Origin: Candidatus Acidiferrales bacterium
Lineage (GTDB): Bacteria > Acidobacteriota > Terriglobia > Acidiferrales > UBA7541
Length of the DNA: 58,980 nucleotides
Direction: 5' to 3'
Assembly: GCA_050011035.1 (NCBI GenBank)
Contig: JBEKJW010000008.1
Coordinates: 1-58,980 of the forward strand
A program made the translations under genes and the position numbers. This document shows, one piece after another, positions 11,660 through 39,242 of this stretch. Under the pieces are notes generated by a model that was not told the origin of the DNA, did no database searches, and saw only the letters and a program-made list of their open reading frames with translations. Position 1 is the stretch's first letter, and every line of letters starts with the position of its first letter.

Positions 11660-12157
11660 TCAACCTTTATCCGCAGCGGCAGTGCCGGGGCTAGCGGGAG
11701 CCGCAGCCACCGAAGGCATAATCCTGCGAAACGGTCGGATGCTGAAGAAGCGAAACCGACAGGGGTCGCAACGGTAAGCCGGAAAGCCGAGCCAGCGTTT
11801 CACTGTTATCAGGGTGCCGGTTTCGACGCGCTCGCGGGAAATGTGTTCCAGGTCGAAGTTGCCGCAACGTGGGCAGTGCGCGTTGAAGGAAAATGCGGCA
11901 GCAACTTTCCAGCCGTAGAAGCGTTCCTCGCACATCATGCAGCGCCACGGACGGAGGCTGGTGGTGCTGGCGATGAAGTCGAGTACACCCCCGCGATGCG
12001 ACCGGTAGCACTCAACACTTCGACAACGCGGACAAATCATCGAGCCCCGTTCGCATCCCTGGAAAGAGCGCAGCATATCGAAATTGGCGGAGCGGAGCAA
12101 GTTGCCCCGAGATACCCCGCGATGCCGCCTCGTGTCATTACCGCAACACCGCGCCAT
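11660..12157 (-). CDS. Hypothetical Cys-rich protein with two predicted zinc ribbons (start uncertain; M28 or M40 of the ORF likely)
   Basis: Four CxxC pairs in two sets: CPRC...CMMC and CPRC...CDPC. No recognised family. Confidence 0.5.
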   Translation of the reverse strand: MARCCGNDTRRHRGVSRGNLLRSANFDMLRSFQGCERGSMICPRCRSVECYRSHRGGVLDFIASTTSLRPWRCMMCEERFYGWKVAAAFSFNAHCPRCGNFDLEHISRERVETGTLITVKRWLGFPAYRCDPCRFRFFSIRPFRRIMPSVAAAPASPGTAAADKG

Positions 12158-23448: not shown

Positions 23449-24495
<1,047 letters not shown>

Positions 24496-24519: not shown

Positions 24520-25608
24520 GTGGTCAACGAACAACCTTGTCGAAGGTTTCGCAGTGGAACGATGATCGACTCGATCTCACGTCTGCGCCCTATGATGCTC
24601 CTCGCCATCGTTGTGTTGGCGCAGGTGCTGCTGCTCGCTTTTCAAATCAAGACCGATCATAGCGTTCCGCTGATTCGCTACTGGGCCGCAGCCGTCGTCA
24701 CGCCGCTCGAGCGCGGCGGTACCTGGGCGTTCTCCGGATTCGGCAACATCTGGAAGGGCTACGTGGGTCTGCGCAACGCGCGCGCGGAAAACGAAAGTAT
24801 GCGCGCCGAAATGCAGCGGCTGCAGCTTCGCAACCAGGAACTGGAAAGCCAGAATGCCGAAGCGCAGCGGCTCGCGAGCCTGCTGAGTTTCCGCGACGCG
24901 CACACCGAAACGCAGATGCTCGCGGCCGAAGTGATCGGCTCGAGCTCCGATCCGTATTCACACACGCTGTTCATCAATCGCGGTGAGAAAGACCGCGTGC
25001 GGATGAATCAGCCCGTGATCACTCCCGAAGGCGTGATTGGCAAAGTCGTCGAAGTTTTTCCGAATTCAGCGCAAGTGCAACTGATCAACGATCCAAACAG
25101 CGGCGTCGGCGCGCTTTTTTCCACCACGCGGACGCATGGCGTGGTGCGCGGCAGCGGCGACCCGAGCCCGCACATGGAATACGTGGCTAACGAAGAAAAG
25201 ATCACAGAGGGCGAGCTGGTCGTCACCTCGGGCGAGGATCGTATTTTCCCGAAGGATTTGCTGATCGGACGAGTGGAATCGTCAAAGACCGGCTCGACGT
25301 TTCAAACCATCACGGTGAAGCCCGCGGCACGGCTCGATCGCCTCGAAGACGTAATCGTCCTGCTCTCGCAGCACGATCTCGAAGGGAAGAAGAGCGACGA
25401 TATTTCCGGCGCGGAAGAAAAAGAAAAACAGGCTCAAGCCGACGCTGCGGCCGCAGCCGCATCTGCGGCTCAGACGAGTGTGCCTGAAGCTTCGCAGGGC
25501 ACGAAGCCGGGGTCGAGCACTCCGTCGGGCGCTCCGTTCAACGCTACCGCGGCGCAGCAAGCGCCAAAAAATCCGGCCGCGAAACCCGCGACGGCTCCGA
25601 ACCGCTAA
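24520..25608 (+). CDS. mreC: Rod shape-determining protein MreC (with Ala/Pro-rich C-terminal tail)
   Basis: TM helix, coiled coil (ENESMRAEMQRLQLRNQELESQNAEAQRL) and beta-domain VITPEGVIGKVVEVFPNSAQVQLINDPNS. Positioned after mreB. Confidence 0.9.
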   Translation: MVNEQPCRRFRSGTMIDSISRLRPMMLLAIVVLAQVLLLAFQIKTDHSVPLIRYWAAAVVTPLERGGTWAFSGFGNIWKGYVGLRNARAENESMRAEMQRLQLRNQELESQNAEAQRLASLLSFRDAHTETQMLAAEVIGSSSDPYSHTLFINRGEKDRVRMNQPVITPEGVIGKVVEVFPNSAQVQLINDPNSGVGALFSTTRTHGVVRGSGDPSPHMEYVANEEKITEGELVVTSGEDRIFPKDLLIGRVESSKTGSTFQTITVKPAARLDRLEDVIVLLSQHDLEGKKSDDISGAEEKEKQAQADAAAAAASAAQTSVPEASQGTKPGSSTPSGAPFNATAAQQAPKNPAAKPATAPNR

Positions 25609-26264: not shown

Positions 26265-29200
26265 CTACTGAGGCAGCAGCTTGATCGTATCGATTGCGAG
26301 GTAGTAGCCGGTGCTTGCGGCATTCTCGCCCGTTACGGTGAGCTTGATTGCGTGGCTTCCGGCAGTGAGCGCCACATTGCCCAGGTCAGTCTCGTACCAC
26401 AAATCGGCCGCCGAATATTGATCCATCGGTGAACTAACGTTCACCCCGTCGATCGATAGCTGGCCGATCCCGCGCACGCTGTGCCTTTTGGTCGAGAAAC
26501 GCAGATCGTACGTGCCGGCCGTAGGTACGCTCACATTGATCGTCACGTTGTCGCCGGGCTTGGTGGCATACAGACACGTGCCGTTGCCGGTGATGAACTG
26601 CGTCCACGCCACCACCTGATAGGACGGTCCGGAACTCGTGCTCGACGACATCAGGCTCGCCGCAACGAACTGCGTGGCGTCCTGCATCGTGGGCGTGCCT
26701 GACGCGAAATTCCAGTTCAGGATCTCTTGCGTCGAAACTTCGCCGCCGGTGCCGGCCGTAAAGCCCACATACGCCATCGTGCCGCCCAGTGTCGACGGAA
26801 TGTTCACCTGGAATTGGTCGTTGAACGTCTGTCCCGTCGTCGCGTCTGTGATCGCAAGAGCGAGCCACGTGCCGTCGTACGTCATCGTCACGTTCATCAC
26901 GTGGCCGCTGCTCAGGTTCAAGCCTGATGAGGTCATGTCAACGGCGGGAATTATTGGGGGAGTGCCGTTGAGGTAGAGGCCCGTGGAGTCGGTGCCTTCG
27001 CCGCTATTGTTGTAGAGGTCAAACTTGATTGCAACGCTCTTCGAAAACGGCGCTGTCTGGCTCGATGGCACCGAATAGCCGAGCGAGCCGCCCGCACCGC
27101 CCAGACCCGTCGTGGAGTTGCCCTGAATGACAAACACAAATCCGTCGGACAGCGGCGCCGGAAGCTGGAAGGAGAACGTGTTGGTGAAGCTCTGCACGTT
27201 CACGGGCGTTGTGGCAAAGAACGAACCCGCCTGGCTGGTGTTGGTGGTGAGTGCGATCGCGTTCGAAGACTGCAGCCACGTCGCGCTTCCGTTCAGTTGC
27301 AAGCCGATAGTCGACGTGAAGCCGCCGCTGTATGCCGAGATGCCGCCGTTTGAAGATTGCACTGTGTAATTTGAACTCGCGCCCGCGCTCGTGATGTAGC
27401 CCGTCGCCATCGCGATCGCACGAACTGTGGCCGATGCGCTGAGCGAGAATCCGGCCGCCGGATAGGCCTGCGTTGTGCCAACGCCTTGAAGTGGCGAGGT
27501 GCCGTCCGTCGTGTAGTAGATCGTTGCGCCCGGGGTCGCGTCCGTGATCGTGACCGGGACGCTGCTTGTGTACGTGCCGGGCGCAGGGCTGATTGTCGGA
27601 GTCGCCACGGTCTGCTGGGTGTATATCACCGTCGTCATCGCGCTCGTCGAAAAGTTTGGCGCCGTCGCGATGGCGCTGACGCTACTCGTGCCGGTGATCG
27701 TGAACGGCGCGCCGTAAGCCAACGTCGTCCCGGCGCCGGGAGATGGCGTTGTGCCGTCCGTGGTGTAGTAAATCGTCGCGCCCGTGGTCGTGTCCGACAT
27801 CGAAACGCTCAGGTTGCCCGAAAACGATTCCGTTCCCGGCGTGATCGTCGGCGTAGCTGCGGCGGGCGACGACGGAGGCGTCGAAGTGAGCGTCCACGTT
27901 TCCACTTTCTGGCTCGACGATTTTCCGCCGCTGCCGCCTGTGAATCCGATGTAGGCAGTATTGCCGCCAACAATCGCCGGAATATTCACGGTCCACGATT
28001 GCGTGAACGTCTTGTTCACGATCGCGTCGGTCAGCGTCATCGTCAGAGTGGTGCCGTTGTAGACGATGTGGGCAGCGATTGCGTCGCCGCTTAGAAGAAT
28101 CACGCCGGACGACGTCATATCAATTGCCGGCAGAATCGGTGAAGCTCCGTTCTCGTACAAGCCCGTCGAGTCCGTGCCTTCGCCGCTGTTGCTGTAAATG
28201 TCGAACTTGATCGCGATGCTCTTCTGAATTCCAGTTGTCCCACCACCACCGTAGCCCAGGTTCCCGCCGCTGAGCCCGATGGCCGACGCGCCCTGCGCGG
28301 AATTCTGGATCGTGAACGTCATGCCGTCCGCGATCGCGTCCGAAATTTGAATCGTGAAGTCAGTCGTGAAATTGCGGATGTCAATCGGCGTGGTGTAGAA
28401 CGCGCTGCTCGCTTCACTCAAACCGCCGTTCGTGAGTTGCAGGCGGCTGTCGTCCAGATCGGCCGAACCGTTCAGCTGCAAGCCTGCGTCGTTGGCGAAA
28501 CCCTGCGAGTAGTTGATCGTCGCGCCTGAGCTGGAGGAGATCGTGTACGTCGCGCTTACCGGCGCGCTATCGATCATTCCCGGCGACGACGCAATGGCCG
28601 TAATCGTGGTCGTTGCGTTCACTGGAATTGCGGCCGAGTAAACGGCGGAGCTATGCGTTGGCGTGGTACCGTTCGTCGTGTAGTAGATCGTTGGCGTCGG
28701 CGAAGCGTCGGTAATCGTCACCGGCTGGCTCGATGTGTACGATCCGCCTCCGGGCGTGAATGCCGGCGGTTCAGCTTGCGCACCAATCGTGTAGACGCCG
28801 GTCGCGACTGCGCTGTTCAAATATCCGCTGGCGACCGCAATCGCATTGATTGTCATCGACGCCGTCACGGGAATGCCGGTCGTGTACTTTGTGGAGGAAG
28901 TTGTGGGCGTCGCTCCATTCGTCGTGTAGTAAATCGTCGCGCCAGACGTCGAATCGCCGAGCGTCACGGTCTGCGAAGCCGCATACGAACCCGGCGTGGG
29001 CATGAAAGTCGGCGTCGCGGCCGTCGGAGAACTCCCGAACAATCCAAAGACGTCGAGTTCCGTGCTGGTTCCGACGTAGACCTTGCCGTTTGTCACCACA
29101 GGCACCGCGAACTTCACGGCCTTGCCGAGCGAATCACGCCCGCTCGTCAGGTTTGAACCGTAGAGCAATTGCGAAACGTTGAGCGCGTTGTAGGCGCGGA

Positions 29201-30728
29201 GAATCGCAGGGCCGCTCGTGTAGGTATCGGTTTCAACCGCCCACACAATTCCGTTCGTCGTTCCGTTCGCGGTAACGACCGGCGTCGAACCGGGAAACTG
29301 GCTGGACTCCGCCGATTGCGACGTCGGACTCGCGGAAAGCGCTCCATTCGCGAACGTGTACGCTTTCAGGTTGTCGCCGCTGCCCCAGAAATAGATGTTG
29401 CCGTTCCAATACGCAGGCATGGACCACAAGCCGCCTATGCCGTTCACCGTCTGCACAATCTCCGAATCCGTTGTACAGCCGGAGCAGTAATGGCTGTTGT
29501 TGTTCGTAAATTGGTCACGGTCTACAACGTAGATACGCCCCTGCTTACCGGCCTCCAGCAATTCGTGAGGATACGTTCCGGTCTGATTGGGCAGAACCAG
29601 CACGCCGCCCGAACCGAGATCCGTGTCCGCGGCGTCCAGGCTCGCCGTGTTGTACGGCGTGAAGTAATCCGTCGGCGTCATCACGCCGTTATTCAGAGAG
29701 AGCTGAATCATGCTGTCGCCGTAGTCCACGCTCGCCGAAGGCTGCGGCGCCGGATTCGGTACCACGTTGCCCGGCACGGGGTAATCCCCGTTGCCCGTCG
29801 CCACGAACAGGCGCCCGCCATTCAACGTATCCGCCGCAAGGCCGTTGCCCGACGCCCAGAATCCGCTGCCGATCCCATTTGGCGATGAATTGAATGCGCC
29901 TGCCAGCTGAAGCGTCGCTGCGTTGTAGCTCAGAATCCACCCGTGCCAATAGCCGTTATCGCCGTTCGCTGCGAAGCCGACATAGACGTAGCCGTTCAGC
30001 AGCAGCAGACCCGGCCGCTGGTTCTCATAGAGGCTGTTAAACGCCATCGTACCGTTCGAACTGCCCTCGCCGTTGCCCGGAACCGACGCCGCAATCACAA
30101 CAGGCCCGTTGAATTTCTCGGCGCCCGTGGTGATATCGAGCGCGTGCAAACGGTGCACACAAGCGCTGTTCTCGTAAGTCTCGGACACCACGTACATCGT
30201 GTTCGTCGTGGGATCGATCACCGGCGTGCCGGTGATGCCTACCTGCGGATAAACGTCTGTCGCGTTGATCACCGAGTCTTTCACAACGGTCGCGCCGTTG
30301 ATCAGAAAGCTCACCTGCCACAGAGCCGCACCGCCCGTGTCCGCGTCGAACGCATACACGCTGTCGTTTTCCGTCTCCACATACACAACGTTGTGCGTTC
30401 CCTGATTCGGAATCGCTACGCCCGGCATGTAAAGCGGCTGCGCGTAAATGAGACCGTCGACCGGCTCGGTAAAAAGGCGCCCGAACGTTGTCGAGTTCAC
30501 GTTCGAAGGAGTGAGGAGGGTTTCGGAAGTATTCTGCCCGGTGCGTCCGATGTCGTAGTGATGCATGGTGACCGCCACTTGCGCCGTTGCCTGTTCGGGT
30601 AGGAAGAGCGCGAACAGCGCGAGAGCCGCGACCATCGGCACACGTCGAGCTGTCGCTCCTATTCTCTGCGACGCGGACTTCAGCAACACTTCCACCCGGT
30701 TTGGGGCCGACATCCTGAGGTTCTCCAT
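26265..30728 (-). CDS. 1487-aa secreted multidomain protein: PQQ-like beta-propeller, 4 chitobiase/hexosaminidase-C-like modules, 2 L-type-lectin-like domains, C-terminal CBM-like domain
   Basis: Signal peptide ...ALALFALFLPEQATAQ. Propeller-type repeats (VVYVETENDSVYAFDADTGGALWQ). Four GATIYYTT[ND]G[AT][TS]P modules. Two ~215-aa segments (GLQLNGSA...SAFY...IAIKFD.Y.NSGEGTDSTGLY.NG...AY[IV]GFT[GA]G[ST]GG) resemble legume-type lectin folds. The C-terminus GTYDLRFSTK...GQLSIDG...LTAGSHAIKLTV is CBM6/35-like. Confidence 0.9.
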   Translation of the reverse strand: MENLRMSAPNRVEVLLKSASQRIGATARRVPMVAALALFALFLPEQATAQVAVTMHHYDIGRTGQNTSETLLTPSNVNSTTFGRLFTEPVDGLIYAQPLYMPGVAIPNQGTHNVVYVETENDSVYAFDADTGGAALWQVSFLINGATVVKDSVINATDVYPQVGITGTPVIDPTTNTMYVVSETYENSACVHRLHALDITTGAEKFNGPVVIAASVPGNGEGSSNGTMAFNSLYENQRPGLLLLNGYVYVGFAANGDNGYWHGWILSYNAATLQLAGAFNSSPNGIGSGFWASGNGLAADTLNGGRLFVATGNGDYPVPGNVVPNPAPQPSASVDYGDSMIQLSLNNGVMTPTDYFTPYNTASLDAADTDLGSGGVLVLPNQTGTYPHELLEAGKQGRIYVVDRDQFTNNNSHYCSGCTTDSEIVQTVNGIGGLWSMPAYWNGNIYFWGSGDNLKAYTFANGALSASPTSQSAESSQFPGSTPVVTANGTTNGIVWAVETDTYTSGPAILRAYNALNVSQLLYGSNLTSGRDSLGKAVKFAVPVVTNGKVYVGTSTELDVFGLFGSSPTAATPTFMPTPGSYAASQTVTLGDSTSGATIYYTTNGATPTTSSTKYTTGIPVTASMTINAIAVASGYLNSAVATGVYTIGAQAEPPAFTPGGGSYTSSQPVTITDASPTPTIYYTTNGTTPTHSSAVYSAAIPVNATTTITAIASSPGMIDSAPVSATYTISSSSGATINYSQGFANDAGLQLNGSADLDDSRLQLTNGGLSEASSAFYTTPIDIRNFTTDFTIQISDAIADGMTFTIQNSAQGASAIGLSGGNLGYGGGGTTGIQKSIAIKFDIYSNSGEGTDSTGLYENGASPILPAIDMTSSGVILLSGDAIAAHIVYNGTTLTMTLTDAIVNKTFTQSWTVNIPAIVGGNTAYIGFTGGSGGKSSSQKVETWTLTSTPPSSPAAATPTITPGTESFSGNLSVSMSDTTTGATIYYTTDGTTPSPGAGTTLAYGAPFTITGTSSVSAIATAPNFSTSAMTTVIYTQQTVATPTISPAPGTYTSSVPVTITDATPGATIYYTTDGTSPLQGVGTTQAYPAAGFSLSASATVRAIAMATGYITSAGASSNYTVQSSNGGISAYSGGFTSTIGLQLNGSATWLQSSNAIALTTNTSQAGSFFATTPVNVQSFTNTFSFQLPAPLSDGFVFVIQGNSTTGLGGAGGSLGYSVPSSQTAPFSKSVAIKFDLYNNSGEGTDSTGLYLNGTPPIIPAVDMTSSGLNLSSGHVMNVTMTYDGTWLALAITDATTGQTFNDQFQVNIPSTLGGTMAYVGFTAGTGGEVSTQEILNWNFASGTPTMQDATQFVAASLMSSSTSSGPSYQVVAWTQFITGNGTCLYATKPGDNVTINVSVPTAGTYDLRFSTKRHSVRGIGQLSIDGVNVSSPMDQYSAADLWYETDLGNVALTAGSHAIKLTVTGENAASTGYYLAIDTIKLLPQ

Positions 30729-30886
30729 TTCAAACTATCGTTCGGCGAACACACTACGGCGCGACTACGGTGCGGGGTTTGGAAAAGATAGCAAATCAGG
30801 CGGGAAAATCCACGTTAAAAAGAATGAAAGCGATTGCAGATCATAGAAGTACCAGGACTGCGATCGCCCTCGAGCACGTTTCTAAA

Positions 30887-31690
30887 TCATCGTGGCTTCA
30901 CGAGAAGAGGCTGCGTTTGCTCCGGCGAACCGACGGTCGAAGCGGTCGTGACGAGGCTCGTGTCCACAGACGGCATGCGCGTTTCCAGGGCTTTAATCGT
31001 CCTGTCCGTCTCGCCAGGCGCGATGAAATAAAACGGGGGCAGGCTGTTCAGCGCAGCTTGCGGCGTGGTGGCGAGCTTCACCCAAGTTCCGGACTCCGGT
31101 GCCTGCGCGTCGAGCGTGATTCTCACGTCGATCAGGTCGTGCCCCTTCACAGTCGCAACGTCCGCGCCATTCCTTTCGTAGCGCACGCTCTTCACCCGCA
31201 CGCGCGCGAAAGAATGAATCGTATTCTTCGTTACGTAAATCTTGTCGCCCTCCGGATCGCCCAGGCAGTGCAACACGAGCTTCGTGGTCACCACACCCGT
31301 TCCAGGAGCAGGCGCGACGTGCGAATCTTCCCAAAAGAGATAAACGCCATTCATCACGATTGGAATCGGTTCCGTATTTTTCAAAAGTTTTGTTGTGTAA
31401 TTGGTATCGGGCTTGTGCGGACCGTTGCCGTCATTCCAGTCGATTGTCGGTTCGAGCTTGTCGGCGTACGAGCACGAATTCACGATCATGCCGAGCGGCG
31501 AGTGATATTGCACGTCGCGGTACGAAATTCCCGCCTCGTAATCTTTCACGGTGAGATACATCATCGGCGCGCCCGAGTCCGCCGCGCGGAAATAAGCAAA
31601 CGATCCAGCCGAGACAACTGCGGCGCCCGCCGCAACCAAAACCGCAAAAAATCGAACTTTTCCGAGGGTCATAAACTCAAATTTTACCAT
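30887..31690 (-). CDS. Hypothetical signal-anchored/secreted protein (start uncertain, 31672-31798)
   Basis: The hydrophobic N-terminus MTLGKVRFFAVLVAAGAAVVSAGSFAYF is followed by a balanced globular sequence. The antisense + ORF (30770-31780) is Arg-rich junk. Confidence 0.65.
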   Translation of the reverse strand: MVKFEFMTLGKVRFFAVLVAAGAAVVSAGSFAYFRAADSGAPMMYLTVKDYEAGISYRDVQYHSPLGMIVNSCSYADKLEPTIDWNDGNGPHKPDTNYTTKLLKNTEPIPIVMNGVYLFWEDSHVAPAPGTGVVTTKLVLHCLGDPEGDKIYVTKNTIHSFARVRVKSVRYERNGADVATVKGHDLIDVRITLDAQAPESGTWVKLATTPQAALNSLPPFYFIAPGETDRTIKALETRMPSVDTSLVTTASTVGSPEQTQPLLVKPR

Positions 31691-31907
31691 CCCGTTTCGC
31701 CCATCCACGCAAATCCGACGAATGTTCGCCGCTCTCTCGCTGTACCCGTAACCAGTATCTGTTTGAACCACTTGCGTTGACCGAATGGACATACCCAACT
31801 TGCGGCCCGTGCGTGCCGATGTTAGCGTTGAGATTCCTCCGAAATGTGGGCGCTACCGGAGGAGTAAGCGCTGAGGGCCGTGCAGGACCCGCCGCTCGGG
31901 AGTACCG

Positions 31908-33818
31908 TTGGCTTCATGGAACGTTAACGACCAGAAGATCCCTCAAGGCCGGCTTGCGCTCGTCTCGTATATTTCGGTCGCATGCATCATCCTTCTGATG
32001 GTGGGTTTCTGGAAGCTGCAGGTCGTCCAGTCCGAACATTTTGCGGACTTGGCCGAGCGCAACCGCATTCGCTCGATTCCAATTATCGCGCCGCGCGGTC
32101 CGATGCTGGACCGGCAAGGTCGCGTCCTCGTCGACAGTTATCCTTCGTTCAGCATTCTTCTTCTGCGCGACGATCCGAAGCAGCTGCAAAAGAGCCTTCC
32201 GGCTGTTGAAGAAGGCCTTGGCATCGATCCTGCCGACTTGCAGCAGCAGCTCGACGCCGCTAAAAGCGCGCCGAAATTTCAGCCCGTGGTGATTAAGCCT
32301 GCAGCCACGCAGGCGGACATCGCATTCGTCGAATCGCATCGCGCCGATCTGCCCGTTCTCGAATTGATGATGGTCCAGCGCCGCCGCTATCCCGGCGACC
32401 AGATGCTGGCGAATGCGATCGGCTACGTGGGCGAAGTTTCCGAGCAGCAGCTCGACGATAGTGACGGCCACTACCGGCCCGGTGACATCGTCGGGAAAGC
32501 TGGCCTCGAGCGCCAATACAACGACCAGCTCGAAGGCACCGACGGCATGCGGCGTGTAATCGTCAACAGCGTCGGCAAAGTGATTCGGACGCTCGACAAC
32601 GTCGACTCGATCCCCGGCAAGCCCATCCAGCTGACCATCGACCTCGATCTGCAGCAGATCGCTGAGACGGATATGGCCGGAAAATCGGGTGCCGTGGTCG
32701 CGATGGACGCGCGAACGGGTGAAGTCCTCGCCATGGTCAGCAAGCCCACGTTCGACCCCAACGACTTCGCGGTACGAATTGACAAAGAAGAATGGCAGAA
32801 GCTCAACACGGACAAGCAAACGCCGCTACTGAACCGCGCGATCCAGGCGCAACTCGCCCCCGGTTCTGTTTTCAAAATCGTGATGGCCGCGGCAATGATC
32901 GATTCCAAAATGATTCCGGAGTCGTACAGCGTTTACTGCCCGGGTCACGCGAATTTCTATGGCCGCGAGTTTCACTGCTGGCGCCCCGCTGGGCACGGCG
33001 AAGTTGAGCTGCATCGCGCGCTCGTCGATTCCTGCGACATTTTTTTCTATAACGTCGGCAAACAGCTGGGCATCGACAAGATCGCCTTTTACGGATCAGG
33101 GTTCGGCTTGGGCAAAAGAACCGGCATCGATCTGCCCAGCGAAGAGCCGGGGCTGATGCCGTCGGAAGAGTGGGTTGAACGCGTGTATCACCACAAGTGG
33201 TACGCGGGCGAAACGATTTCCGTCGCGATCGGTCAGGGCGCCGTCACCGTTACGCCCGTCCAACTCGCGCGCATGGCCGCAGCCGTCGCAAGCGGCGGCA
33301 CGCTCGTTCAGCCTCATCTGCTGAAGGGATATAAGGATCCAAAAATCGAGCGCTTCCCTATTTCCGATGAAGCCGTCGAGAAAGTCACGCAGGGTCTGTT
33401 CGGCGTCGTGAACGAAGCGGGCGGCACGGCTTACCATCTGCGTCTCGCGAACGTTGAGCTTTGCGGAAAATCCGGCACGGCGCAGCTGATGAGCTACGAC
33501 GCTGCGAACCGCATGGGCACCAAGAAAATGGACGGCTGGTTTGTCGGCTTTGCGCCGCGCCGCGATCCCGAAATCGTGGTCGCTGCCATCGTGCAGGACA
33601 CCATGGAGCACGGCGGCGAAGCCGCCGGCCCGGTGGTGAAAGACATCGTGAAGATGTTCTACGACAAGAAGACAGCCGGGACGCAGCAGCAGACGAAGGT
33701 AATTCCGACGACTCCGCCTTCGGCCGATAAACCCGCTACTGTTTTGGCGTCCGCATCCGCCGAAAAGCCCGCGGCCTCGCAGCCACTCGTCGCCACCGTA
33801 GGAGGTCCGCGCCGATGA
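31908..33818 (+). CDS. mrdA: Penicillin-binding protein 2 (elongasome transpeptidase)
   Basis: N-terminal TM anchor, SxxK (GSVFK), KSGTA, and the PBP2 dimerisation plus transpeptidase layout. It overlaps rodA by 4 nt. Confidence 0.93.
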   Translation: MASWNVNDQKIPQGRLALVSYISVACIILLMVGFWKLQVVQSEHFADLAERNRIRSIPIIAPRGPMLDRQGRVLVDSYPSFSILLLRDDPKQLQKSLPAVEEGLGIDPADLQQQLDAAKSAPKFQPVVIKPAATQADIAFVESHRADLPVLELMMVQRRRYPGDQMLANAIGYVGEVSEQQLDDSDGHYRPGDIVGKAGLERQYNDQLEGTDGMRRVIVNSVGKVIRTLDNVDSIPGKPIQLTIDLDLQQIAETDMAGKSGAVVAMDARTGEVLAMVSKPTFDPNDFAVRIDKEEWQKLNTDKQTPLLNRAIQAQLAPGSVFKIVMAAAMIDSKMIPESYSVYCPGHANFYGREFHCWRPAGHGEVELHRALVDSCDIFFYNVGKQLGIDKIAFYGSGFGLGKRTGIDLPSEEPGLMPSEEWVERVYHHKWYAGETISVAIGQGAVTVTPVQLARMAAAVASGGTLVQPHLLKGYKDPKIERFPISDEAVEKVTQGLFGVVNEAGGTAYHLRLANVELCGKSGTAQLMSYDAANRMGTKKMDGWFVGFAPRRDPEIVVAAIVQDTMEHGGEAAGPVVKDIVKMFYDKKTAGTQQQTKVIPTTPPSADKPATVLASASAEKPAASQPLVATVGGPRR

Positions 33819-34915
33819 AAGACCGGCCGCAGACGCAGGATTTCGACTGGGTGCTCCTCGGGATCGTTGCGGCGATCAACGCGCTCGGGTTGTTCGAGAT
33901 TTATTCCTCCACCCACGCCAGTGCGATGGCGGGCATGCAGTGGAAACAGCTGATCTGGATCGGCATTGGCTTCGTCGGCATGTTCCTGATTTCCCGCGTG
34001 GATTACCACACGCTTCTCGACCAGGCTCCTATCCTCTACATCGCAGGCATCTTAGGGCTGTTAGTTGTGTTGGTAATGGGCTTCTCGCGCTTGGGAGCAA
34101 AGCGCTGGATCGCTCTGGGCGGCGGATTCAATTTCCAAGTGTCAGAGCTGATGAAGTTGATTATAATCATTGTGCTGGCTCGCTTTTTCAGCGAGGTCCG
34201 CACGGATCGGCTCACCCTCGGCGATCTGGTGAAAGTTGCCCTGATCACCATGGTTCCGGTAGCATTGATTCTGAAGCAGCCCGACCTTGGAACTGCTTTG
34301 GTTTTGATCCCGGTGGCCGTCGTAGGAATTTTTCTCGCCGGCATCGAGTGGAAACACCAGTTGATCGGGCTAGTTTTGCTGGCCATGCTGATACCATTTG
34401 GCTGGCACATGCGGCATCATTTGAAGCCGTACCAGCAGCAGCGTATTGAAACGTTCCTCCATCCTGAGGAAGATCAACGCGGCGCTGGTTATCAGATTTT
34501 GCAGTCGGAAATTGCGGTAGGTTCCGGTGGATTCTGGGGCAAAGGGTTTGGCAAAGGCAGCCAGAATCAGTTAGGCTTCGTGCCCGTCCGGTATTCGGAC
34601 TTTATTCTGGCCGCGCTCGCCGAAGAGCAGGGGTTTATCGGCGTATGCGTGGTTCTGCTTTTGTATTTAGCCCTGATTCTGCGGCTTGTCGACAATGCGC
34701 AGAAGGCGAAAGATCGCGCCGGGATGTACGTGGTGATGGGAGTTACGGCGATTCTCGCTTTTCACGTTTTGGTCAATGCATCCATGGTCATCGGATACAT
34801 GCCGGTGACTGGCATTCCCCTGCCGCTGATGAGCTACGGAGGCTCGTCAACGGCATTTGTATTTTTAGCGTTGGGCATGGTGATGAACGTCCGGATGCGG
34901 CGTTTCGTCAACTGA
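33815..34915 (+). CDS. rodA: SEDS-family peptidoglycan glycosyltransferase RodA
   Basis: 366-aa polytopic FtsW/RodA/SpoVE protein (QPDLGTALVL, SDFILAALAEEQGF, PVTGIPLPLMSYGGSS). Coupled to mrdA. Confidence 0.93.
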   Translation: MKDRPQTQDFDWVLLGIVAAINALGLFEIYSSTHASAMAGMQWKQLIWIGIGFVGMFLISRVDYHTLLDQAPILYIAGILGLLVVLVMGFSRLGAKRWIALGGGFNFQVSELMKLIIIIVLARFFSEVRTDRLTLGDLVKVALITMVPVALILKQPDLGTALVLIPVAVVGIFLAGIEWKHQLIGLVLLAMLIPFGWHMRHHLKPYQQQRIETFLHPEEDQRGAGYQILQSEIAVGSGGFWGKGFGKGSQNQLGFVPVRYSDFILAALAEEQGFIGVCVVLLLYLALILRLVDNAQKAKDRAGMYVVMGVTAILAFHVLVNASMVIGYMPVTGIPLPLMSYGGSSTAFVFLALGMVMNVRMRRFVN

Positions 34916-35142
34916 AGCCCGCTTTTTGGTTCCACGGTTTTTCAGGCCCGAGTCGCGCACAAAAACGCGGCCGGGTATTTCAGCTTTGAGTCAGGTCAGC
35001 ACCGGAATGAGGAAAGCCCTCCTACAAATTGGAACGCCTTTCCTGGGCGGCCCGCAGCGTCGAAGTCTTTCTTCACGCTTCTCCGGCCGAGCGCGCGCCA
35101 CAGTGTGTGCCGCGGATCCCCGGTGCGCCATGAGGAGTTTAC

Positions 35143-38100
35143 ATGTCGAAGGAAATGGTTATTTCGGCCAACCCCCACGAGACGCGGGTGGCCATCTTGG
35201 AAGAAGGTCAGCTTTGTGAGTATTACGTAGAGCGCGAAAAAGAGTTTGCGTTAGTCGGCAGCATCTACAAGGGCAAGGTCACGCGCGTGCTTCCCGGCAT
35301 GCAGTCGGCCTTCGTCGAAATCGGTCTCGATAGCGACGCCTTCCTGTACGTCAGCGACTTCCTGGAAGAAATTGAAGGGCTCGACCACGTCGCGACGGAC
35401 GATAAGTCCGCGAAGCCCGCGCACGCGGCGCCCTTCAGCAGCGCACCGGCGGAGAACGGCGGCAGCGAATCTGCTGTGGCTCCGATGGAAGGCGAAAGCA
35501 TCTCGGGTGATCCGGCGGATTCGCTCGAATCGCAGCCTCCTGCCAATTACGTTCCATCCCCCATTGTTGCGCGGCCGCAGTCGGGCTCTCAGCAGCACGA
35601 CCGCCCTCGGTTTGAACATCGCGGCGGTAGCGGTGGCGGAGATCGCAACCGTGGTGGCGGTGGCGGTTTCAATCGCCGCGGCGGGCGAAACCGCCAGCGC
35701 GGGCGAGGTCCCGGCGGCGGTGGTGGCGGACGGGGCGGAGAACGCCGTTTCGGGCGCGATTTGCCGTCGTCCAAATATGCTTCGTCGCGCAGCCACGAAG
35801 ATCAGCCGCAGGATCCAAGCCTCCCAGCCGGCCATATCTCAACCGTACTTCCCGGCGAATCGATCTCGAAGTTCCGCGACCGCCCCGACGCTCTTTCTGC
35901 GCCGGTCGCCGAGCAACCTGTGCACGATCCATTTAACGTAGCGCCGCCGCCCGAATCCGTCGAGCAAGAGGCGCAGCCGCGCGACGAGCACGAGCACCAG
36001 CCGCCGCGTGAATTTCAGCAGCGCGACACACGCCGGTTCGACCGTGGTTCGCGTTTTGACCGTGGGCCGCGCCACAGCGGTGGTCCGCGTTTCAGCAATC
36101 AACCGACCAGCAGCGCTCCTAGCTCGGGCGGCGGCTTTGCGTCGCATATCGAGCCTCTGCCGGGCGAATCGATTTCGAAGTGGAAGGCGCACGCACACCT
36201 GCCGCCCGATCCCGTCGATGAAACTCCGGGTGCGTCCGCTTCGCATGTGGATGAAGTCGAAGGCCACGTCGATGAAGGACAGCACGACGAGCTTGGGCTG
36301 CACGCCTCGCACGCGCTCGATGAGATTGCTTCGGGGCGGGAACACGCTGCCGAAGCGCGTCACGCCCAAGCGGAGCACGACGACGGGCATGACGACGAGC
36401 GTCACGATGTGCACCACGATGAGCCGCGCCACGAAGCTCGCACCGAAGTTTCGTCGCATGTGGACGACGCACCCGCATCGCACGTGATCGACGAGCACCT
36501 CACCGAGGACGAAGCTGCCGCGCTCGCCGAGCACATCGCCGAAGCCCAGGAAGAACAATCTGCCCTCGAGTCGCACGGCCACGAACACGATGAGCACGAG
36601 GACGACGCGCATCGTGACCACGAAGACCGCGACGCCGATGACGCGCACGACGAAATTCACGCCGGAGAAACCGAGACGCACGCCGTTTCCGACGTTGATC
36701 TGGAAGGCGCGCACGAGCCGCACGAAGGTGATGAATCCGAATCCTTCGAATCCCGCGCCGAAGCTCTGATGGCGCCGGACACGATGGACTCCGAAGAAGG
36801 CGTCGCATCAGAGGAAACTCTTGACGCCGGCGACGCGCAGGCCGACGCCATCCTCGCCGCCGATTCCGCTCAGCAGCCGCCGAACGAAGCGCGCGTCCGC
36901 AACGACTTCCGCTCGCGCATGAACAATCCGGCGCGCCGCGGAGGACGCGACCGTGGCCGCCGCGATCATCGCCACGGCGGCCGTCCGCACCACCACGGCC
37001 ATCACCGCCCGCATCAGCCGCGCAAGATCCAGCTGATCGCGGACATGCTCAAGCAGGGCCAGGAAATCATCGTCCAGATCGCGAAGGAACCTCTCGGCAA
37101 GAAGGGCGCGCGCATCACCAGCCACGTCGCTCTGCCGGGCCGTTTCCTCGTCTACATGCCCACGCTCGATCACACCGGCGTTTCGCGCAAGATCGCGTCC
37201 GCCGAAGAGCGCGCGCGCCTGCGTCATCTGGTGAACGAAGCGAAAGGCACATCCGGCGGCGGCTTCATCGTCCGCACCGCCGCAGCCAGCGCCGCGCCGG
37301 AAGATGTTCGCGCCGACGTGGAATTCCTCACCCGCACGTGGGCCGAAATCAAAACGCGCTCGGAGTCGAAGAAAGCTCCGTCGCTTTTGCACCGCGATCT
37401 AAACCTTGTGGAGCGCATTCTTCGCGACTTCGTCACGCCCGATTTCGGGGCGATCTGGGTCGATTCCGAAGAGGGCTATACGAAGGTCGTCGAGTTCATG
37501 AGCCGGTTTCAGCCACAGCTTGTGAGCCGCGTGAAGCTCTACTCCAAGCAGACACCGGTATTCGAAGAATTCGGCATCCAGCAGGAAATCGACAAGGGCC
37601 TGCGCCCGAAGGTCTGGCTTAAGTCCGGCGGCTACATCGTCATCAACCACACCGAAGCGCTTGTTGCGATCGATGTCAACACCGGCAAGTTCGTCGGCAA
37701 GGGCTCGAACCGCCTGGAAGACACCATCGTCCGCACCAACGTGGAAGCGGTGAAGGAAATCGTCCGCCAGATGCGCTTGCGCGATCTCGGCGGCATCATC
37801 GTCATCGACTTCATCGACATGGAAGAGCGCCGCAATCGCGACAAAGTGATGGCGGCGCTCGAAGACGCGTTGCGCGCCGACCGTGCTCCGTCAAAGGTGC
37901 TGCGCTTCAACGAATTCGGTCTCGTCGCCATCACGCGTAAGCGCACCAAGCAAGCTCTGGAGCGCACACTCTGCCAGCCGTGCCCTTACTGCACGGGCTC
38001 CGGCATGGTGAAGTCGATCGCGACGCTCTGCTACGAATTGCAGACCGAAGCCATGAAGATGTCGCCGGAGATGCCGTCGGGCAGCATCACGCTTCGCGTG

Positions 38101-38232
38101 CATCCCGAAATTTCGAAGGCGCTCAAGACGCGCGAGTCGTCGCTGATCGAGGAACTCGAGCGCTGGACGAAAAAGAGCGTCATCATCCAGGCCGATCCCA
38201 CGCTCCACTGGGAGCAGTACGACATCTACTAA
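35143..38232 (+). CDS. rng: RNase G/E-family endoribonuclease with a ~550-aa internal low-complexity insertion
   Basis: The N-terminal S1 half is VGSIYKGKVTRVLPGMQSAFVEIGLDSDAFLYVSDF. The second half and catalytic core resume at KIQLIADMLKQGQEIIVQIAKEPLGKKGARITSHVALPGRFLVYMPT...EALVAIDVNTGKF...GGIIVIDFIDM...CPYCTGSG. RBS is GAGGAG. Confidence 0.9.
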   Translation: MSKEMVISANPHETRVAILEEGQLCEYYVEREKEFALVGSIYKGKVTRVLPGMQSAFVEIGLDSDAFLYVSDFLEEIEGLDHVATDDKSAKPAHAAPFSSAPAENGGSESAVAPMEGESISGDPADSLESQPPANYVPSPIVARPQSGSQQHDRPRFEHRGGSGGGDRNRGGGGGFNRRGGRNRQRGRGPGGGGGGRGGERRFGRDLPSSKYASSRSHEDQPQDPSLPAGHISTVLPGESISKFRDRPDALSAPVAEQPVHDPFNVAPPPESVEQEAQPRDEHEHQPPREFQQRDTRRFDRGSRFDRGPRHSGGPRFSNQPTSSAPSSGGGFASHIEPLPGESISKWKAHAHLPPDPVDETPGASASHVDEVEGHVDEGQHDELGLHASHALDEIASGREHAAEARHAQAEHDDGHDDERHDVHHDEPRHEARTEVSSHVDDAPASHVIDEHLTEDEAAALAEHIAEAQEEQSALESHGHEHDEHEDDAHRDHEDRDADDAHDEIHAGETETHAVSDVDLEGAHEPHEGDESESFESRAEALMAPDTMDSEEGVASEETLDAGDAQADAILAADSAQQPPNEARVRNDFRSRMNNPARRGGRDRGRRDHRHGGRPHHHGHHRPHQPRKIQLIADMLKQGQEIIVQIAKEPLGKKGARITSHVALPGRFLVYMPTLDHTGVSRKIASAEERARLRHLVNEAKGTSGGGFIVRTAAASAAPEDVRADVEFLTRTWAEIKTRSESKKAPSLLHRDLNLVERILRDFVTPDFGAIWVDSEEGYTKVVEFMSRFQPQLVSRVKLYSKQTPVFEEFGIQQEIDKGLRPKVWLKSGGYIVINHTEALVAIDVNTGKFVGKGSNRLEDTIVRTNVEAVKEIVRQMRLRDLGGIIVIDFIDMEERRNRDKVMAALEDALRADRAPSKVLRFNEFGLVAITRKRTKQALERTLCQPCPYCTGSGMVKSIATLCYELQTEAMKMSPEMPSGSITLRVHPEISKALKTRESSLIEELERWTKKSVIIQADPTLHWEQYDIY

Positions 38233-38303
38233 AGTTCATCCAGGGATTCGACGCGATACAATAGCGCGACGCACATGAATCCTTTCGGCATAGGAAGACT
38301 GAC

Positions 38304-39242
38304 GTGACCTCTGCGGTGCTTATATCCACGTGGGAAGCCGGCTTGTTCGTCTTCTCCAGCGGCGCGCCTGAACGGGAACTTGTTGGCCATTCTATTCAAG
38401 CGCTCGCATCCGACGGGTACGGCGGCACTCTCGCCATCGTCGATGAGAACTCGCTGCGCCGTCGCGCAACCGATGGCACCTGGAGCACAATCGCGGCTGC
38501 CGAAAATCTCGCGTGCTGTGTGGCCGCGGGCGGTGCTATCTACATCGGCACGAATGACCCATCCGTCTTGCGCGTCGATGCCACGGGAAAAATCGAAAAA
38601 CTTGCTGGCTTAGATCGGGTCGGAGGCCGCGACACGTGGTACGCAGGCAGCGCCATCGTCGACGGCAAGCGTGTCGGCCCGCCGCTCGGGATTCGCTCCA
38701 TTACCGCAACACCCGACGGTTCCGTGCTTCTCGCAAATGTCCACGTCGGCGGCATTCCGCGATCGACGGATCGAGGCGCAACCTGGCAACCCACCATCGA
38801 CGTTGCCACCGACGTTCACGAAGTTCGCGTACACCCAAGCCGCTCGAATATTGTCGCTGCCGCCTCCGCGCTCGGCCTCTGCACAAGCACGGATGGAGGC
38901 GTCACCTGGGAAATCGACAATCGTGGGCTTTACGCCTCGCACTGTTCTGCGGTCGCATTCGCAGGCGACGCTGTTTTCGTGTCCGCGTCGATAAACCCGT
39001 TCATTCCCGAAGGCAAGCTCTACCGCCGAGGCGTGGATGAGCGTGGGCCGCTCGTTCCCGTCAGCGATGGCCTTCCCGAATGGCTCGGCGGCAAGATCGA
39101 CACTCGCTGCATCGGGGCGAAAGGCTCAAACGTCGCATTCGCCGACATGAGTGGAGTTCTCTACGTGTCATCCGACGCGGGCCGTACCTGGTCGCGCCGG
39201 GCTGACGGCATTCCCATGCCAAGCAGTGTCGTGCTCGTCTGA
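38304..39242 (+). CDS. BNR/Asp-box repeat beta-propeller protein (sialidase-fold-like), hypothetical
   Basis: Three Asp-box-like motifs: STDRGATW, STDGGVTW, SSDAGRTW. GTG start. No obvious signal peptide. Confidence 0.65.
   Translation: MTSAVLISTWEAGLFVFSSGAPERELVGHSIQALASDGYGGTLAIVDENSLRRRATDGTWSTIAAAENLACCVAAGGAIYIGTNDPSVLRVDATGKIEKLAGLDRVGGRDTWYAGSAIVDGKRVGPPLGIRSITATPDGSVLLANVHVGGIPRSTDRGATWQPTIDVATDVHEVRVHPSRSNIVAAASALGLCTSTDGGVTWEIDNRGLYASHCSAVAFAGDAVFVSASINPFIPEGKLYRRGVDERGPLVPVSDGLPEWLGGKIDTRCIGAKGSNVAFADMSGVLYVSSDAGRTWSRRADGIPMPSSVVLV

Follow-up and report, generated by a model that had tools for sequence, protein, structure and literature searches.

Locus and gene neighborhood

The DNA analyzed here, referred to as the window, comprises positions 1-58,980 (58,980 nucleotides, forward strand) of contig JBEKJW010000008.1 from the Candidatus Acidiferrales bacterium assembly GCA_050011035.1 (Acidobacteriota, class Terriglobia). 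It harbors the complete gene of an Rne/Rng-family endoribonuclease of 1029 residues, the ATG of which is preceded at a distance of 7 nt by the Shine-Dalgarno (SD) sequence AGGAG (Table 1). The gene lies directly behind the mrdA-rodA pair, and a minus-strand block separates this pair from mreB, mreC and a likely mreD. A preliminary description of the locus had proposed the E. coli synteny, with the RNase gene just downstream of mreBCD-yhdE; the mre genes are indeed found upstream, but mrdA and rodA intervene and no maf/yhdE was found. In one relative the gene order is mreBCD-x-x-mrdA-rodA-rng.

The leader in front of the start codon is a candidate regulatory RNA. It is 97-100% identical to the leaders of the two related loci L081 and L082, with synonymous sites of the catalytic part differing by 35-40%, and a consensus fold of it shows some compensatory pairs. 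An Rfam scan of positions 34700-38500 returned only a chance miRNA match (E 0.26) and left the leader unmatched.

Table 1. Features of the RNase locus, with positions in the window and residue numbers of the 1029-residue protein.
Feature	Position (nt)	Strand	Residues	Basis or remark
mreB	23455-24495			Farther upstream
mreC	24520-25608			Farther upstream, as is a likely mreD
mrdA	31908-33818			Directly upstream pair with rodA
rodA	33815-34915			Directly upstream of RNase gene
Conserved 5' leader, candidate regulatory RNA	34990-35142	+		Identity to L081 and L082
Rne/Rng-family endoribonuclease CDS, complete	35143-38232	+	1-1029	ORF list
RNase H-like N-terminal subdomain	35143-35247	+	1-35	Alignment to E. 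coli RNase E 2-35
S1 domain, N-terminal half	35248-35373	+	36-77	Aligns to RNase E 36-76; F57 and F67 equivalents
S1-loop insert, 550 aa, low-complexity, predicted disordered	35374-37023	+	78-627	Absent from E. coli RNase E
Degenerate third motif copy, APMEGESIS	35479-35505	+	113-121	Without K-aromatic tail
Arg-Gly (RGG-like) basic block, then conserved RRFGRDLPSSKYASS island	35602-35790	+	154-216	Composition; net charge +13
Motif copy 1, STVLPGESISKFR	35842-35880	+	234-246	Island HMM
Motif copy 2, EPLPGESISKWKA	36151-36189	+	337-349	EPLPGE[ST/K]LSKWK in close homologues
Acidic His-rich block	36223-36879	+	361-579	Composition; net charge -62
Predicted acidic helix, DEAAALAEHIAEAQEEQSALE	36505-36573	+	455-477	AlphaFold2
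Arg/His-rich basic block	36880-37023	+	580-627	Net charge +10; directly precedes S1 resumption
S1 domain, C-terminal half	37024-37140	+	628-666	Aligns to RNase E 86/90-125 and 1SLJ
5'-sensor and DNase I-like catalytic region (PF10150)	37132-37947	+	664-935	Pfam, E. coli alignment
Zn-link motif CQPCPYCTGSG	37972-38004	+	C947, C950	Aligns to E. coli CPRCSGTG
Small, thioredoxin-like C-terminal domain	37978-38226	+	946-1028	PF20833

Protein family and catalytic core

The 1029-residue protein scores above the curated cutoff of the family profile TIGR00757 (488 bits, cutoff 326) and matches PF10150 with 341 bits (E 6e-102, cutoff 25.5), and a phmmer search of PDB sequences retrieves the structures of RNase E from E. 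coli (E 2e-76). The 5'-sensor pair R711/T712 within GFIVRTAA corresponds to E. coli R169/T170, the active-site residues D844 and N846 within AIDVNTG correspond to D303/N305, and D889 and D892 within VIDFIDM align to the E. coli segment IDFIDM (D346). All of these residues, as well as the Zn-link CPYCTGSG, are invariant in an alignment of 150 sequences. Since the equivalents of F57, F67, K112, R169/T170, D303/N305, IDFIDM and the CPxC motif are all kept and invariant, the protein would be a catalytically active member of the Rne/Rng family, its core the size of RNase G and its termini free of extensions, a reading that is weighed below jointly with the role of the insert.

The chain stops at the small C-terminal domain, which reaches 26.2 bits against the PF20833 cutoff of 26.8 in the native protein and 27.8 bits once the insert is spliced out; a C-terminal extension is lacking (length 0) across the clade. 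With regard to the finer classification, the native protein scores 502.8 bits and the spliced one 518 with the RNase G equivalog NF008689, both below the cutoff of 594, residues 1-493 of the spliced protein covering the model end to end (1-486 of 489). The RNase E equivalogs NF008074, NF052586 and NF052588 give 266-300 bits, under cutoffs of 900-1400, and the terminal non-catalytic scaffold of RNase E is absent from the protein.

An S1 domain interrupted by 550 residues

In the phmmer alignments residues 3-76 pair with E. coli RNase E 2-76 and residues 632-965 with 90-422. Both flanks, residues 1-77 and 628-1029, are thus collinear with E. coli RNase E, so that the intervening 550 residues occupy a single loop of the S1 domain. 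Removal of the insert leaves a sequence that matches RNase E 2-221 without a break (E 1e-32), and likewise 1SLJ, the structure of the S1 domain alone (E 2e-12). The N-terminal half of S1 is invariant in 119 homologues, with dN = 0 relative to L081 and L082, and K654 of the C-terminal half is the equivalent of K112; F57, F67 and K654, which stand for the residues that contact RNA, do not vary in the alignments.

The Pfam S1 model PF00575 covers only the N-terminal half of the native protein (14.4 bits, gathering score 22), and the spliced protein is matched in one stretch, 38-114, which spans the junction, at 19.6 bits and hence still below 22. The S1 domains of RNase E-type enzymes depart from the Pfam S1 model, and this sub-cutoff score is therefore weak negative evidence. 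Judged by these alignments, the flanks would together form one S1 domain.

The collinearity of residues 1-77 and of the sequence from K628 onward with the two S1 halves had been proposed beforehand and is upheld by both the phmmer and the trimmed alignments. The same applies to the approximate length of 550 residues given for nt 35374-37023, which encode exactly residues 78-627, and to the size of some 480 residues without the insertion, that of RNase G, the computed value being 479. The separation of the S1 halves in E. coli had been put at 20-30 residues; the alignment reduces it to about 13 (~77-89).

Layout and composition of the insert

Within the insert an acidic start is followed by the Arg-Gly block, a short motif in two to three copies, the acidic block with its helix and finally the Arg-rich block, the successive charge blocks amounting to +13, -8, -62 and +10. 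The RGG-like, His/Asp/Glu-rich and Arg/His tracts noted earlier are all present (residues ~154-205, ~361-579 and 580-627, respectively). A Pfam scan of the insert alone, with E values up to 5, returned no domain, and hydrophobic residues make up 12.7% of it.

Two AlphaFold2 runs were compared. The first, with the full-length protein and 52 aligned close homologues, gave a mean pLDDT of 44, while the second, based on 150 long and short homologues, rendered the catalytic core with confidence (pLDDT 80-96); the predicted core model resembles RNase E structures (E 6e-30). The N-terminal strands 3-31 reach pLDDT 85-88, and the S1 residues 34-75 and 628-656 remain at about 35-50 in both runs. Within the insert pLDDT is below 50 save for the helix at residues 455-477, the sole confident element in both runs (pLDDT 72-94). 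Together with the low hydrophobicity and the absence of Pfam domains, these values classify the insert as predicted disordered; a disorder and composition analysis of this kind had been suggested beforehand.

The RGG/RRFGRDLPSSKYASS block is conserved among close homologues, the Arg/His block strongly so, and the helix is kept in close homologues only. Some properties extend further: acidity is general in the clade (median net insert charge -50), the last tenth of the insert is positively charged in 77% of the wider clade, and the short loops of other Acidobacteriota are likewise Arg-rich at their end, the polarity from acidic to Arg-rich being preserved across loops of 30 to 887 residues.

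With 49 histidines (8.9%) in the insert versus 8 in the remainder of the protein, and with an HHHGHH cluster among them, a metal-binding or pH-sensing module has to be considered, in which this cluster and the His/Asp/Glu tract would bind divalent metals or, in a bacterium of acid soil, change their protonation near the pH of the cytoplasm. Close relatives show a median His content of 5.7%, and the disordered region of Caulobacter RNase E binds Cu2+ through histidines (PMC12510024). However, most of the wider long-insert clade is devoid of the enrichment (median 1.4%), and the Pfam scan revealed no known metal-binding domain or motif in the insert. As the His enrichment is lineage-specific, metal binding is ruled out as a role common to these inserts and cannot account for their existence; this reading is highly improbable.

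A gene-specific linear motif

Most inserts longer than 300 residues contain one to four copies of the motif phi-phi-LPGES[LI][AS]K[YFW], which in a six-frame translation of 1 Mb is confined to the RNase gene. The motif is wholly absent from a subclade with inserts of 200-500 residues. An HMM of the first island (consensus phi-phi-LPGES[LI][AS]K[YF][RK]) matches 56 of 94 diverse long-insert representatives, and that of the second matches 22 of the 94. At the site of the third, degenerate copy about half of the close homologues carry EPLPGESI or EPLAGESI. The three occurrences of GESIS listed in the preliminary description, two of them as LPGESISK at nt 35848-35871 and 36157-36180, are located as given there (GESIS at residues 117, 238 and 341). 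HMMs built from the RGG block, the helix and the Arg/His block found no counterparts beyond close relatives among the 94 representatives, for which low complexity may be responsible and not a real lack of such islands.

Conservation and selection

Comparison with orthologues, as had been recommended, places an insert of 500-661 residues at the same site in all 119 full-length close homologues (Terriglobia, 'Acidiferrales'), the flanks being fixed at 77 and 402 residues and some of the contigs being of Mb scale. Among 129 full-length representatives at 50% identity the S1 loop varies continuously from 9 to 887 residues. Relatives with at least 56% catalytic identity nearly all have a loop of 200-887 residues without a terminal extension. 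A distant group combines an S1 insert of 176-414 residues with a C-terminal extension and could, at a guess, represent the alpha-proteobacterial type of RNase E.

The dN/dS ratio amounts to 0.034 for the catalytic part, 0.03-0.04 for the RGG block and 0.14-0.16 for the insert, the latter values being approximate because dS of the insert is near saturation (~1.0) and the alignment of low-complexity sequence is imperfect.

Frames are broken at the related long-read MAG loci L003, L006, L007 and L033 of this G+C-rich gene, and a misjoin, a frameshift or the fusion of two genes might accordingly have created the insert. Such an artefact is of negligible probability in view of the single uninterrupted ORF with its SD sequence, a 97% identical protein of 1028 residues in an independent assembly, the same architecture in more than 100 further clusters, indels between relatives that stay in frame, and dN/dS well below 1. 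Neither the frameshift nor the misassembly that had been named as a possible flaw is borne out. Misassembly and gene fusion are ruled out by the plus-frame dN/dS and the conservation across the clade, as is the minus-strand ORF 35839-36723 as a true gene. On the evidence of these sequence comparisons the insert is real, clade-conserved and under purifying selection.

The continuous range of loop lengths, the high turnover (mean top-residue frequency 0.56 in the insert against 0.97 in the core) and a GC3 of the insert below that of the core could also result from neutral expansion of a permissive S1 loop by replication slippage, without specific function. This is improbable: the insert and in particular the RGG block are constrained at the dN/dS values given above, the LPGES motif is conserved, repeated and gene-specific, the charge polarity is conserved, every member of a large clade retains the insert, and there are no large tandem repeats.

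Comparison with known RNase E and RNase G systems

S1 insertions as such are known. Voss et al. 2014 described a variable, charged and disordered S1 insertion of about 50-150 residues in alpha-proteobacterial and plant RNase E and solved the structure of a Caulobacter fragment (4OXP); RhlB binding was mapped to a catalytic-domain fragment of the Caulobacter enzyme that includes the S1 insert, and deletion of the insert from Arabidopsis RNE is reported to lower activity (PMC4245959). Insertions in Chlorobium and plants were noted by Mudd et al. 2008 (PMC2486463). A 2011 survey listed Acidobacteriota RNase E/G with about 511 residues and predicted no degradosome for them (PMC3071783).

The Caulobacter insert (4OXP; Hardwick 2011, Voss 2014) occupies the same S1 loop, K628 corresponding to residue 164 of 4OXP and to E. 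coli ~86, and lies beside the RNA channel. It too is charged, predicted to be disordered and variable both in length and in sequence, and it contains a helical element. The two differ in that the Caulobacter insert comprises about 80 residues (published range 50-150) against 550 in the acidobacterial protein and as many as 887 in its relatives, and in that Caulobacter RNase E has a long C-terminal scaffold, whereas the acidobacterial protein ends at its small domain. Moreover, the inserts share no sequence similarity, and LPGES is specific to the acidobacterial clade. The plant chloroplast enzyme (Arabidopsis RNE) and Chlorobium RNase E/G also carry lineage-specific inserts within S1; these inserts are far shorter and unrelated in sequence, and plant RNase E in addition has long N-terminal extensions.

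E. coli RNase G (Rng/CafA) shares with the acidobacterial protein the core size, the absence of a C-terminal scaffold and the site downstream of a rod-shape cluster, but it has no S1 insertion and its neighbors are mreD-maf instead of mrdA and rodA.

The C-terminal scaffold of E. coli RNase E contains the Arg-rich RNA-binding segments AR1 and AR2 and short linear motifs for RhlB, enolase and PNPase. The acidobacterial insert resembles it in being long, disordered and low in hydrophobicity, with short conserved islands and Arg-rich segments, and in combining fast sequence turnover with purifying selection. In contrast to this scaffold it is internal to S1, it has no evident membrane-targeting amphipathic helix, and it shows no similarity to the E. 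coli microdomains. A further difference concerns the condensate-type (BR-body) enzymes. RNase E condensates are driven by alternating charge blocks, which in Caulobacter measure 10-30 residues (bioRxiv 10.1101/272286), whereas those of the acidobacterial insert are few and very long.

The arrangement had at first been regarded as undescribed. Its kind is known from the S1 insertions of Voss et al. 2014 and Mudd et al. 2008, by which such insertions are in part already catalogued, and the insert therefore extends a published phenomenon and is not a new principle (PMC4245959, PMC2486463). New are the scale, the phylum, the absence of a terminal scaffold and the LPGES motif; no description of acidobacterial S1 inserts of 200-887 residues without a C-terminal domain was found in the accessible literature.

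Possible role of the insert

The best overall explanation, to which, jointly with the activity of the enzyme, we assign a probability of roughly 0.55, is that the insert would serve the function that the non-catalytic C-terminal half has in RNase E. Within this scheme the S1 surface loop (E. coli ~77-89) would have expanded into an intrinsically disordered region of 550 residues, the Arg-rich blocks of which would provide extra RNA-binding capacity beside the S1 RNA channel. The LPGES motifs and the helix would dock partner proteins in a degradosome-like assembly, and the oppositely charged blocks could mediate self-association or gate the access of substrates. In other words, the insert probably provides the enzyme with an integral platform for docking partners and binding RNA. 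The absence of Pfam domains, the low hydrophobicity, the charge blocks with their kept polarity and the repeated gene-specific motif all argue for a scaffold-like role, as do the precedents of a Caulobacter catalytic-domain fragment that includes the S1 insert and binds RhlB, and of charge blocks that drive RNase E condensates. Counting against it are the low pLDDT of both S1 halves, the sub-cutoff Pfam S1 score of the spliced protein, the failure of the islands other than LPGES to turn up beyond close relatives, the subclade without the motif, and charge blocks that are few and very long. An internal scaffold, condensate or metal module, as originally envisaged, is plausible and is indirectly supported by purifying selection, the charge blocks, the Arg-rich segments and the conserved repeated motif.

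Alternatively, the insert might be an autoinhibitory or gating module, in which the acidic tract, especially the helix 455-477, would mimic RNA in the S1/5'-sensor channel or neutralize the Arg-rich blocks; in the source lineage pH or metals acting on the His residues could regulate such a module. The acidic block with its predicted acidic helix, the net negative charge of the inserts throughout the clade and the position of the loop next to the RNA channel are consistent with gating, and a helix of the Caulobacter S1 insert reaches into the RNA-binding site, where Asp/Glu residues were proposed as RNA mimics (PMC4245959). On the other hand the helix is kept in close relatives only, an acidic tract of 200 residues far exceeds what a channel plug needs, and the repeated, conserved LPGES motif is left unexplained. 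Gating as the explanation of the insert is rather unlikely; it is compatible with the scaffold reading, and both functions could coexist.

Carried further, the scaffold reading leads to the tentative and somewhat doubtful proposal that in Terriglobia the entire degradosome scaffold of the principal RNase E/G enzyme is built inside the S1 domain and not at a terminus, the clade-specific motif in its one to four copies recruiting partners and the Arg-rich and acidic blocks binding RNA and driving self-assembly. If true, this would be an independently evolved and topologically different route to degradosome or condensate formation, located at the substrate channel.

RNase E scaffolds organize bacterial mRNA decay in degradosomes, membrane foci and BR-body condensates. 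To our knowledge, work on them has dealt almost exclusively with terminal extensions of the enzymes of Proteobacteria, Actinobacteria and cyanobacteria. In the Acidobacteriota, which rank among the most abundant bacteria of soils, a large clade of Terriglobia carries 200-887 non-catalytic residues within S1; this sequence is subject to purifying selection and contains a repeated motif that is sharply defined. A peptide of the LPGES motif offers a handle for finding acidobacterial degradosome partners, and the natural series of loops of 9-887 residues may reveal the contribution of the S1 loop and the limits of its tolerance. The comparison of internal with terminal scaffolds would furthermore allow testing whether the position of a scaffold affects how partner enzymes are coupled to the substrate channel.

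Architecture of the interrupted ribonuclease

The Rne/Rng-family ribonuclease of the window (hereafter the query) is encoded by one reading frame with AGGAG 7 nt upstream of its ATG. It scores 488 bits against NCBIfam TIGR00757 (Rne/Rng; cutoff 326), the match being split into two stretches, and the Pfam S1 model is matched by the N-terminal half only (14.4 bits). In the alignment to PDB sequences, query residues 3-76 correspond to E. coli RNase E 2-76 and residues 632-965 to 90-422 (E 2e-76), with ~13 E. coli residues being replaced by ~555. Once the insert is trimmed to a short linker, a contiguous alignment is obtained both with RNase E 2-221 (E 1e-32) and with 1SLJ, the structure of the isolated S1 domain (E 2e-12). 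When spliced to 494 aa, the protein matches the RNase G model over the full length (1-493 to 1-486 of 489, 518 bits), and Pfam S1 then runs in one stretch, 38-114, across the junction, at 19.6 bits and thus below the 22-bit cutoff. Alignment in two pieces and then contiguously supports the view of the preliminary description that the flanks are the two halves of one S1 domain.

An alignment of 150 sequences shows no variation at the residues on which E. coli RNase E function depends, and the query has them all: the S1 RNA contacts F57, F67 and K112 (K654 in the query), the 5'-sensor pair R169/T170 (R711/T712), the active-site residues D303/N305 (D844/N846) together with IDFIDM, plus C947/C950 of the Zn-link CPxC. 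Judged from these residues, the enzyme is very probably active.

The insert is dominated by A, E, G, D, S, R, H and P, contains 12.7% hydrophobic residues versus 35.3% in the remainder of the protein, and harbors 49 histidines versus 8. Three GESIS sequences lie at aa 117, 238 and 341; large tandem repeats were not found. Coordinates, GESIS/LPGESISK positions and composition were all reproduced as first described.

Features of the ribonuclease gene, its insert and the upstream region
Feature	Position (nt)	Residues (aa)	Strand	Remarks
Secreted-looking protein	within 26265-31798		-	1487 aa; CHB_HEX_C, Fn3-associated, legume-lectin repeats
Protein without assigned family	within 26265-31798		-	303 aa
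5' leader and first 77 codons	34990-35373		+	
Ribonuclease ORF	35143-38232		+	1029 aa, single, no interruptions
S1-splitting insert	35374-37023	78-627	+	nt and aa positions agree exactly
LPGESISK, two copies	35848-35871; 36157-36180		+	DNA 88% identical over 25 nt
Insert block		78-153		net charge -9
Insert block (Arg-Gly)		154-216		net charge +13
Insert block		217-360		net charge -8
Insert block		361-579		net charge -62
Insert block (Arg/His)		580-627		net charge +10
Conserved island		78-92		close homologues
Conserved island				Arg-Gly block and RRFGRDLPSSKYASS; close homologues
Conserved islands				two LPGES motifs; close homologues
Conserved island		449-477		acidic helix; close homologues
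Conserved island				Arg/His block ARVRNDFRSRMxNPARRGGRDRGRRD...HHRPxxPR; close homologues
RNase_E_G		664-935		Pfam, E 6e-102
Thioredoxin-like small domain		946-1028		Pfam

Structure prediction

Two AlphaFold2 runs were carried out, the first on a shallow alignment (mean pLDDT 44) and the second on 150 long and short homologues. The latter yielded pLDDT values of 80-96 for the RNase H-like subdomain, the 5'-sensor, the DNase I domain, the Zn-link region and the small domain, and this core matches RNase E structures (E 6e-30). As the S1 halves (aa 34-75 and 628-656) were left at pLDDT ~35-50, the proposed closure of the S1 barrel across the insert is supported by the collinear sequence, the conserved residues and 4OXP as a precedent from Caulobacter rather than by a model of the query. 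All of the insert scores under 50 apart from a single helix (aa 455-477) with 72-94 in both runs.

Conservation across the clade

The 120 best 90%-identity clusters, taken as close homologues, carry the names Rne/Rng or RNase G; their sources are Candidatus Acidiferrales (an order within Terriglobia, Acidobacteriota), Acidoferrales, Sulfotelmatobacter and similar taxa. They include a 1028-aa protein 97% identical to the query, and others lie on contigs of 1-5 Mb. All 119 full-length close homologues carry an insert of 500-661 aa at the same site, flanked by exactly 77 and 402 aa. With the architecture clade-wide and the window reading frame intact, an assembly artefact is excluded as its origin.

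Frame-broken copies of the gene do occur in some long-read metagenome-assembled genomes. In four acidobacterial loci of this kind (L003, L006, L007 and L033) the frames are broken in or near the G+C-rich, low-complexity insert, probably by long-read assembly indels; automated annotation of the family may therefore often be truncated, as in the family protein P0013 (590 aa).

In a codon alignment with the syntenic relatives L081 (81% identical) and L082 (75% identical), dN/dS is 0.14-0.16 for the insert, 0.03-0.04 for its Arg-Gly block, 0.034 for the catalytic part and 0 for the N-terminal flank, the ratios being approximate as dS of the insert is near saturation. The two S1 halves are the most strongly constrained part of the protein; dN of the N-terminal flank is zero against both relatives. 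A neutral expansion of the S1 loop is disfavoured, as both this selection on the insert and the conservation of its motifs speak against it.

Conserved islands and the LPGES motif

The inserts of close homologues consist of conserved islands separated by variable linkers. The LPGES motif is the sole island still detectable in diverse representatives: of 94 inserts with 150 aa or more, 56 contain it, in 1-4 copies and usually at 25-45% of the insert length. The consensus reads phi-phi-LPGES[LI][AS]K[YF][RK], WDGGxxLPGETLSR[YH] being a second form. Above 500 aa, 26 of 29 inserts have the motif; below 200 aa, none of 156 loops does. Six-frame translation of ~1 Mb (window and fetched loci) gave 17 matches, all 17 within the ribonuclease insert (chance expectation 0.2, a rough estimate). 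Three GESIS copies had been noted in the query; two are LPGESISK motifs, and the third, EGESISG, is degenerate, but at its site about half of the close homologues have EPLPGESI.

Histidine makes up 8.9% of the query insert; the median is 5.7% among close relatives and falls to 1.4% across the wider clade. With the enrichment thus local, a role of the insert as a metal or pH module would be lineage-specific at best.

Loop length in the wider family and known S1 insertions

HMMER was run exhaustively against 1.84 billion representatives at 50% identity and returned 7438 proteins at E ≤ 1e-30. Among the best 150 of these, both flanks are present in 129, and their S1-site loops spread continuously from 9 to 887 aa. 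Proteins with a catalytic identity of at least 56% to the query almost all combine a loop of 200-887 aa with the lack of any N- or C-terminal extension. Thermoanaerobaculia and Vicinamibacterales, from other acidobacterial classes, have proteins of 492-574 aa with 20-90-aa loops; the short loops of other Acidobacteriota begin with acidic residues (EEFERLESGDDE...) and finish rich in Arg (...RRGRDRDRDR). The same polarity marks the giant inserts (last tenth positive in 77%), at a median net charge of -50. In a more distant group of Rne/Rng proteins (P0228-P0269, core identity 44-47%) an S1-site insert of 176-414 aa, exceeding the 50-150 aa published for alpha-proteobacteria, is accompanied by a C-terminal extension of 80-425 aa.

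Voss et al. 2014 (PMC4245959) described charged S1-domain inserts of ~50-150 aa in alpha-proteobacterial and plant RNase E, predicted to be disordered, and solved a Caulobacter S1/5'-sensor fragment (4OXP), in which part of the insert forms helices reaching into the RNA-binding site. RhlB binding was mapped to this catalytic-domain fragment, and deletion of the Arabidopsis insert, as cited there, lowers activity (PMC4245959). Mudd et al. 2008 (PMC2486463) noted that enzymes from Chlorobium and plants have insertions in S1. The Caulobacter insertion site is the same as that of the query, K628 corresponding to 4OXP residue 164 and E. coli ~86. Kaberdin et al. 2011 (PMC3071783) give 511 aa for the Fibrobacteres/Acidobacteria group, with no degradosome predicted. 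No account of acidobacterial S1 inserts was found in searches of the accessible literature.

The query represents a known kind of arrangement, in which RNase E homologues carry an insertion in the S1 loop, here pushed to an extreme of 4-6 times the published range. New are the other phylum, the lack of any terminal scaffold whatever and a conserved repeated motif of its own. The preliminary interpretation is supported in part. It holds for the anatomy of the insert; its suggestion that the arrangement had not been described does not hold in kind, S1 insertions having already been published.

Gene neighbourhood and 5' leader

The ribonuclease gene directly follows mrdA-rodA, with mreB, mreC and likely mreD further upstream; in a relative the order is mreBCD-x-x-mrdA-rodA-rng. 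A minus-strand block (26265-31798) sits between mreBC(D) and mrdA-rodA and is also found in L081, while L082 has a GH127-family glycosidase gene and one without assignment between mreD and mrdA instead. Downstream, window 38304-39242 (+) encodes a 312-aa protein whose sole match, to BNR/Asp-box, is marginal and whose position is kept in L081. Genes for a DUF3224 and a PNPOx-like protein come next. L081 carries a small toxin-antitoxin pair (PIN toxin, RHH antitoxin; 11270-11891) directly downstream of the ribonuclease gene, absent from the matching position in the window and L082.

The ~150-nt leader is 97-100% identical to those of L081 and L082, while synonymous sites of the catalytic part differ by 35-40%. 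The first 77 codons are likewise nearly unchanged in DNA sequence, with dS lowered to 0.085 and 0.315, versus 0.56 and 0.47. Blocks of the leader are retained in more distant loci. The consensus fold of six leaders comprises a long-range closing helix (GCACCGG/CCGGTGC) and three hairpins, with compensatory changes in 6 of 38 pairs. The single-sequence fold energy is unexceptional (z = -0.84), and no Rfam family matches. The leader may be an autoregulatory RNA, analogous but not homologous to the E. coli rne 5' UTR.

Functional implications

Beyond the anatomy of the insert, we infer every functional step. In the best-supported reading, the insert would constitute the non-catalytic region of the enzyme. 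Autoinhibition by its acidic tract is compatible with this reading. As the non-catalytic region, the insert would provide extra RNA affinity alongside the S1 channel through its Arg-rich blocks and may dock partners through the LPGES motifs and the acidic helix, while the large acidic block would balance charge and might also have a part in channel gating or self-association.
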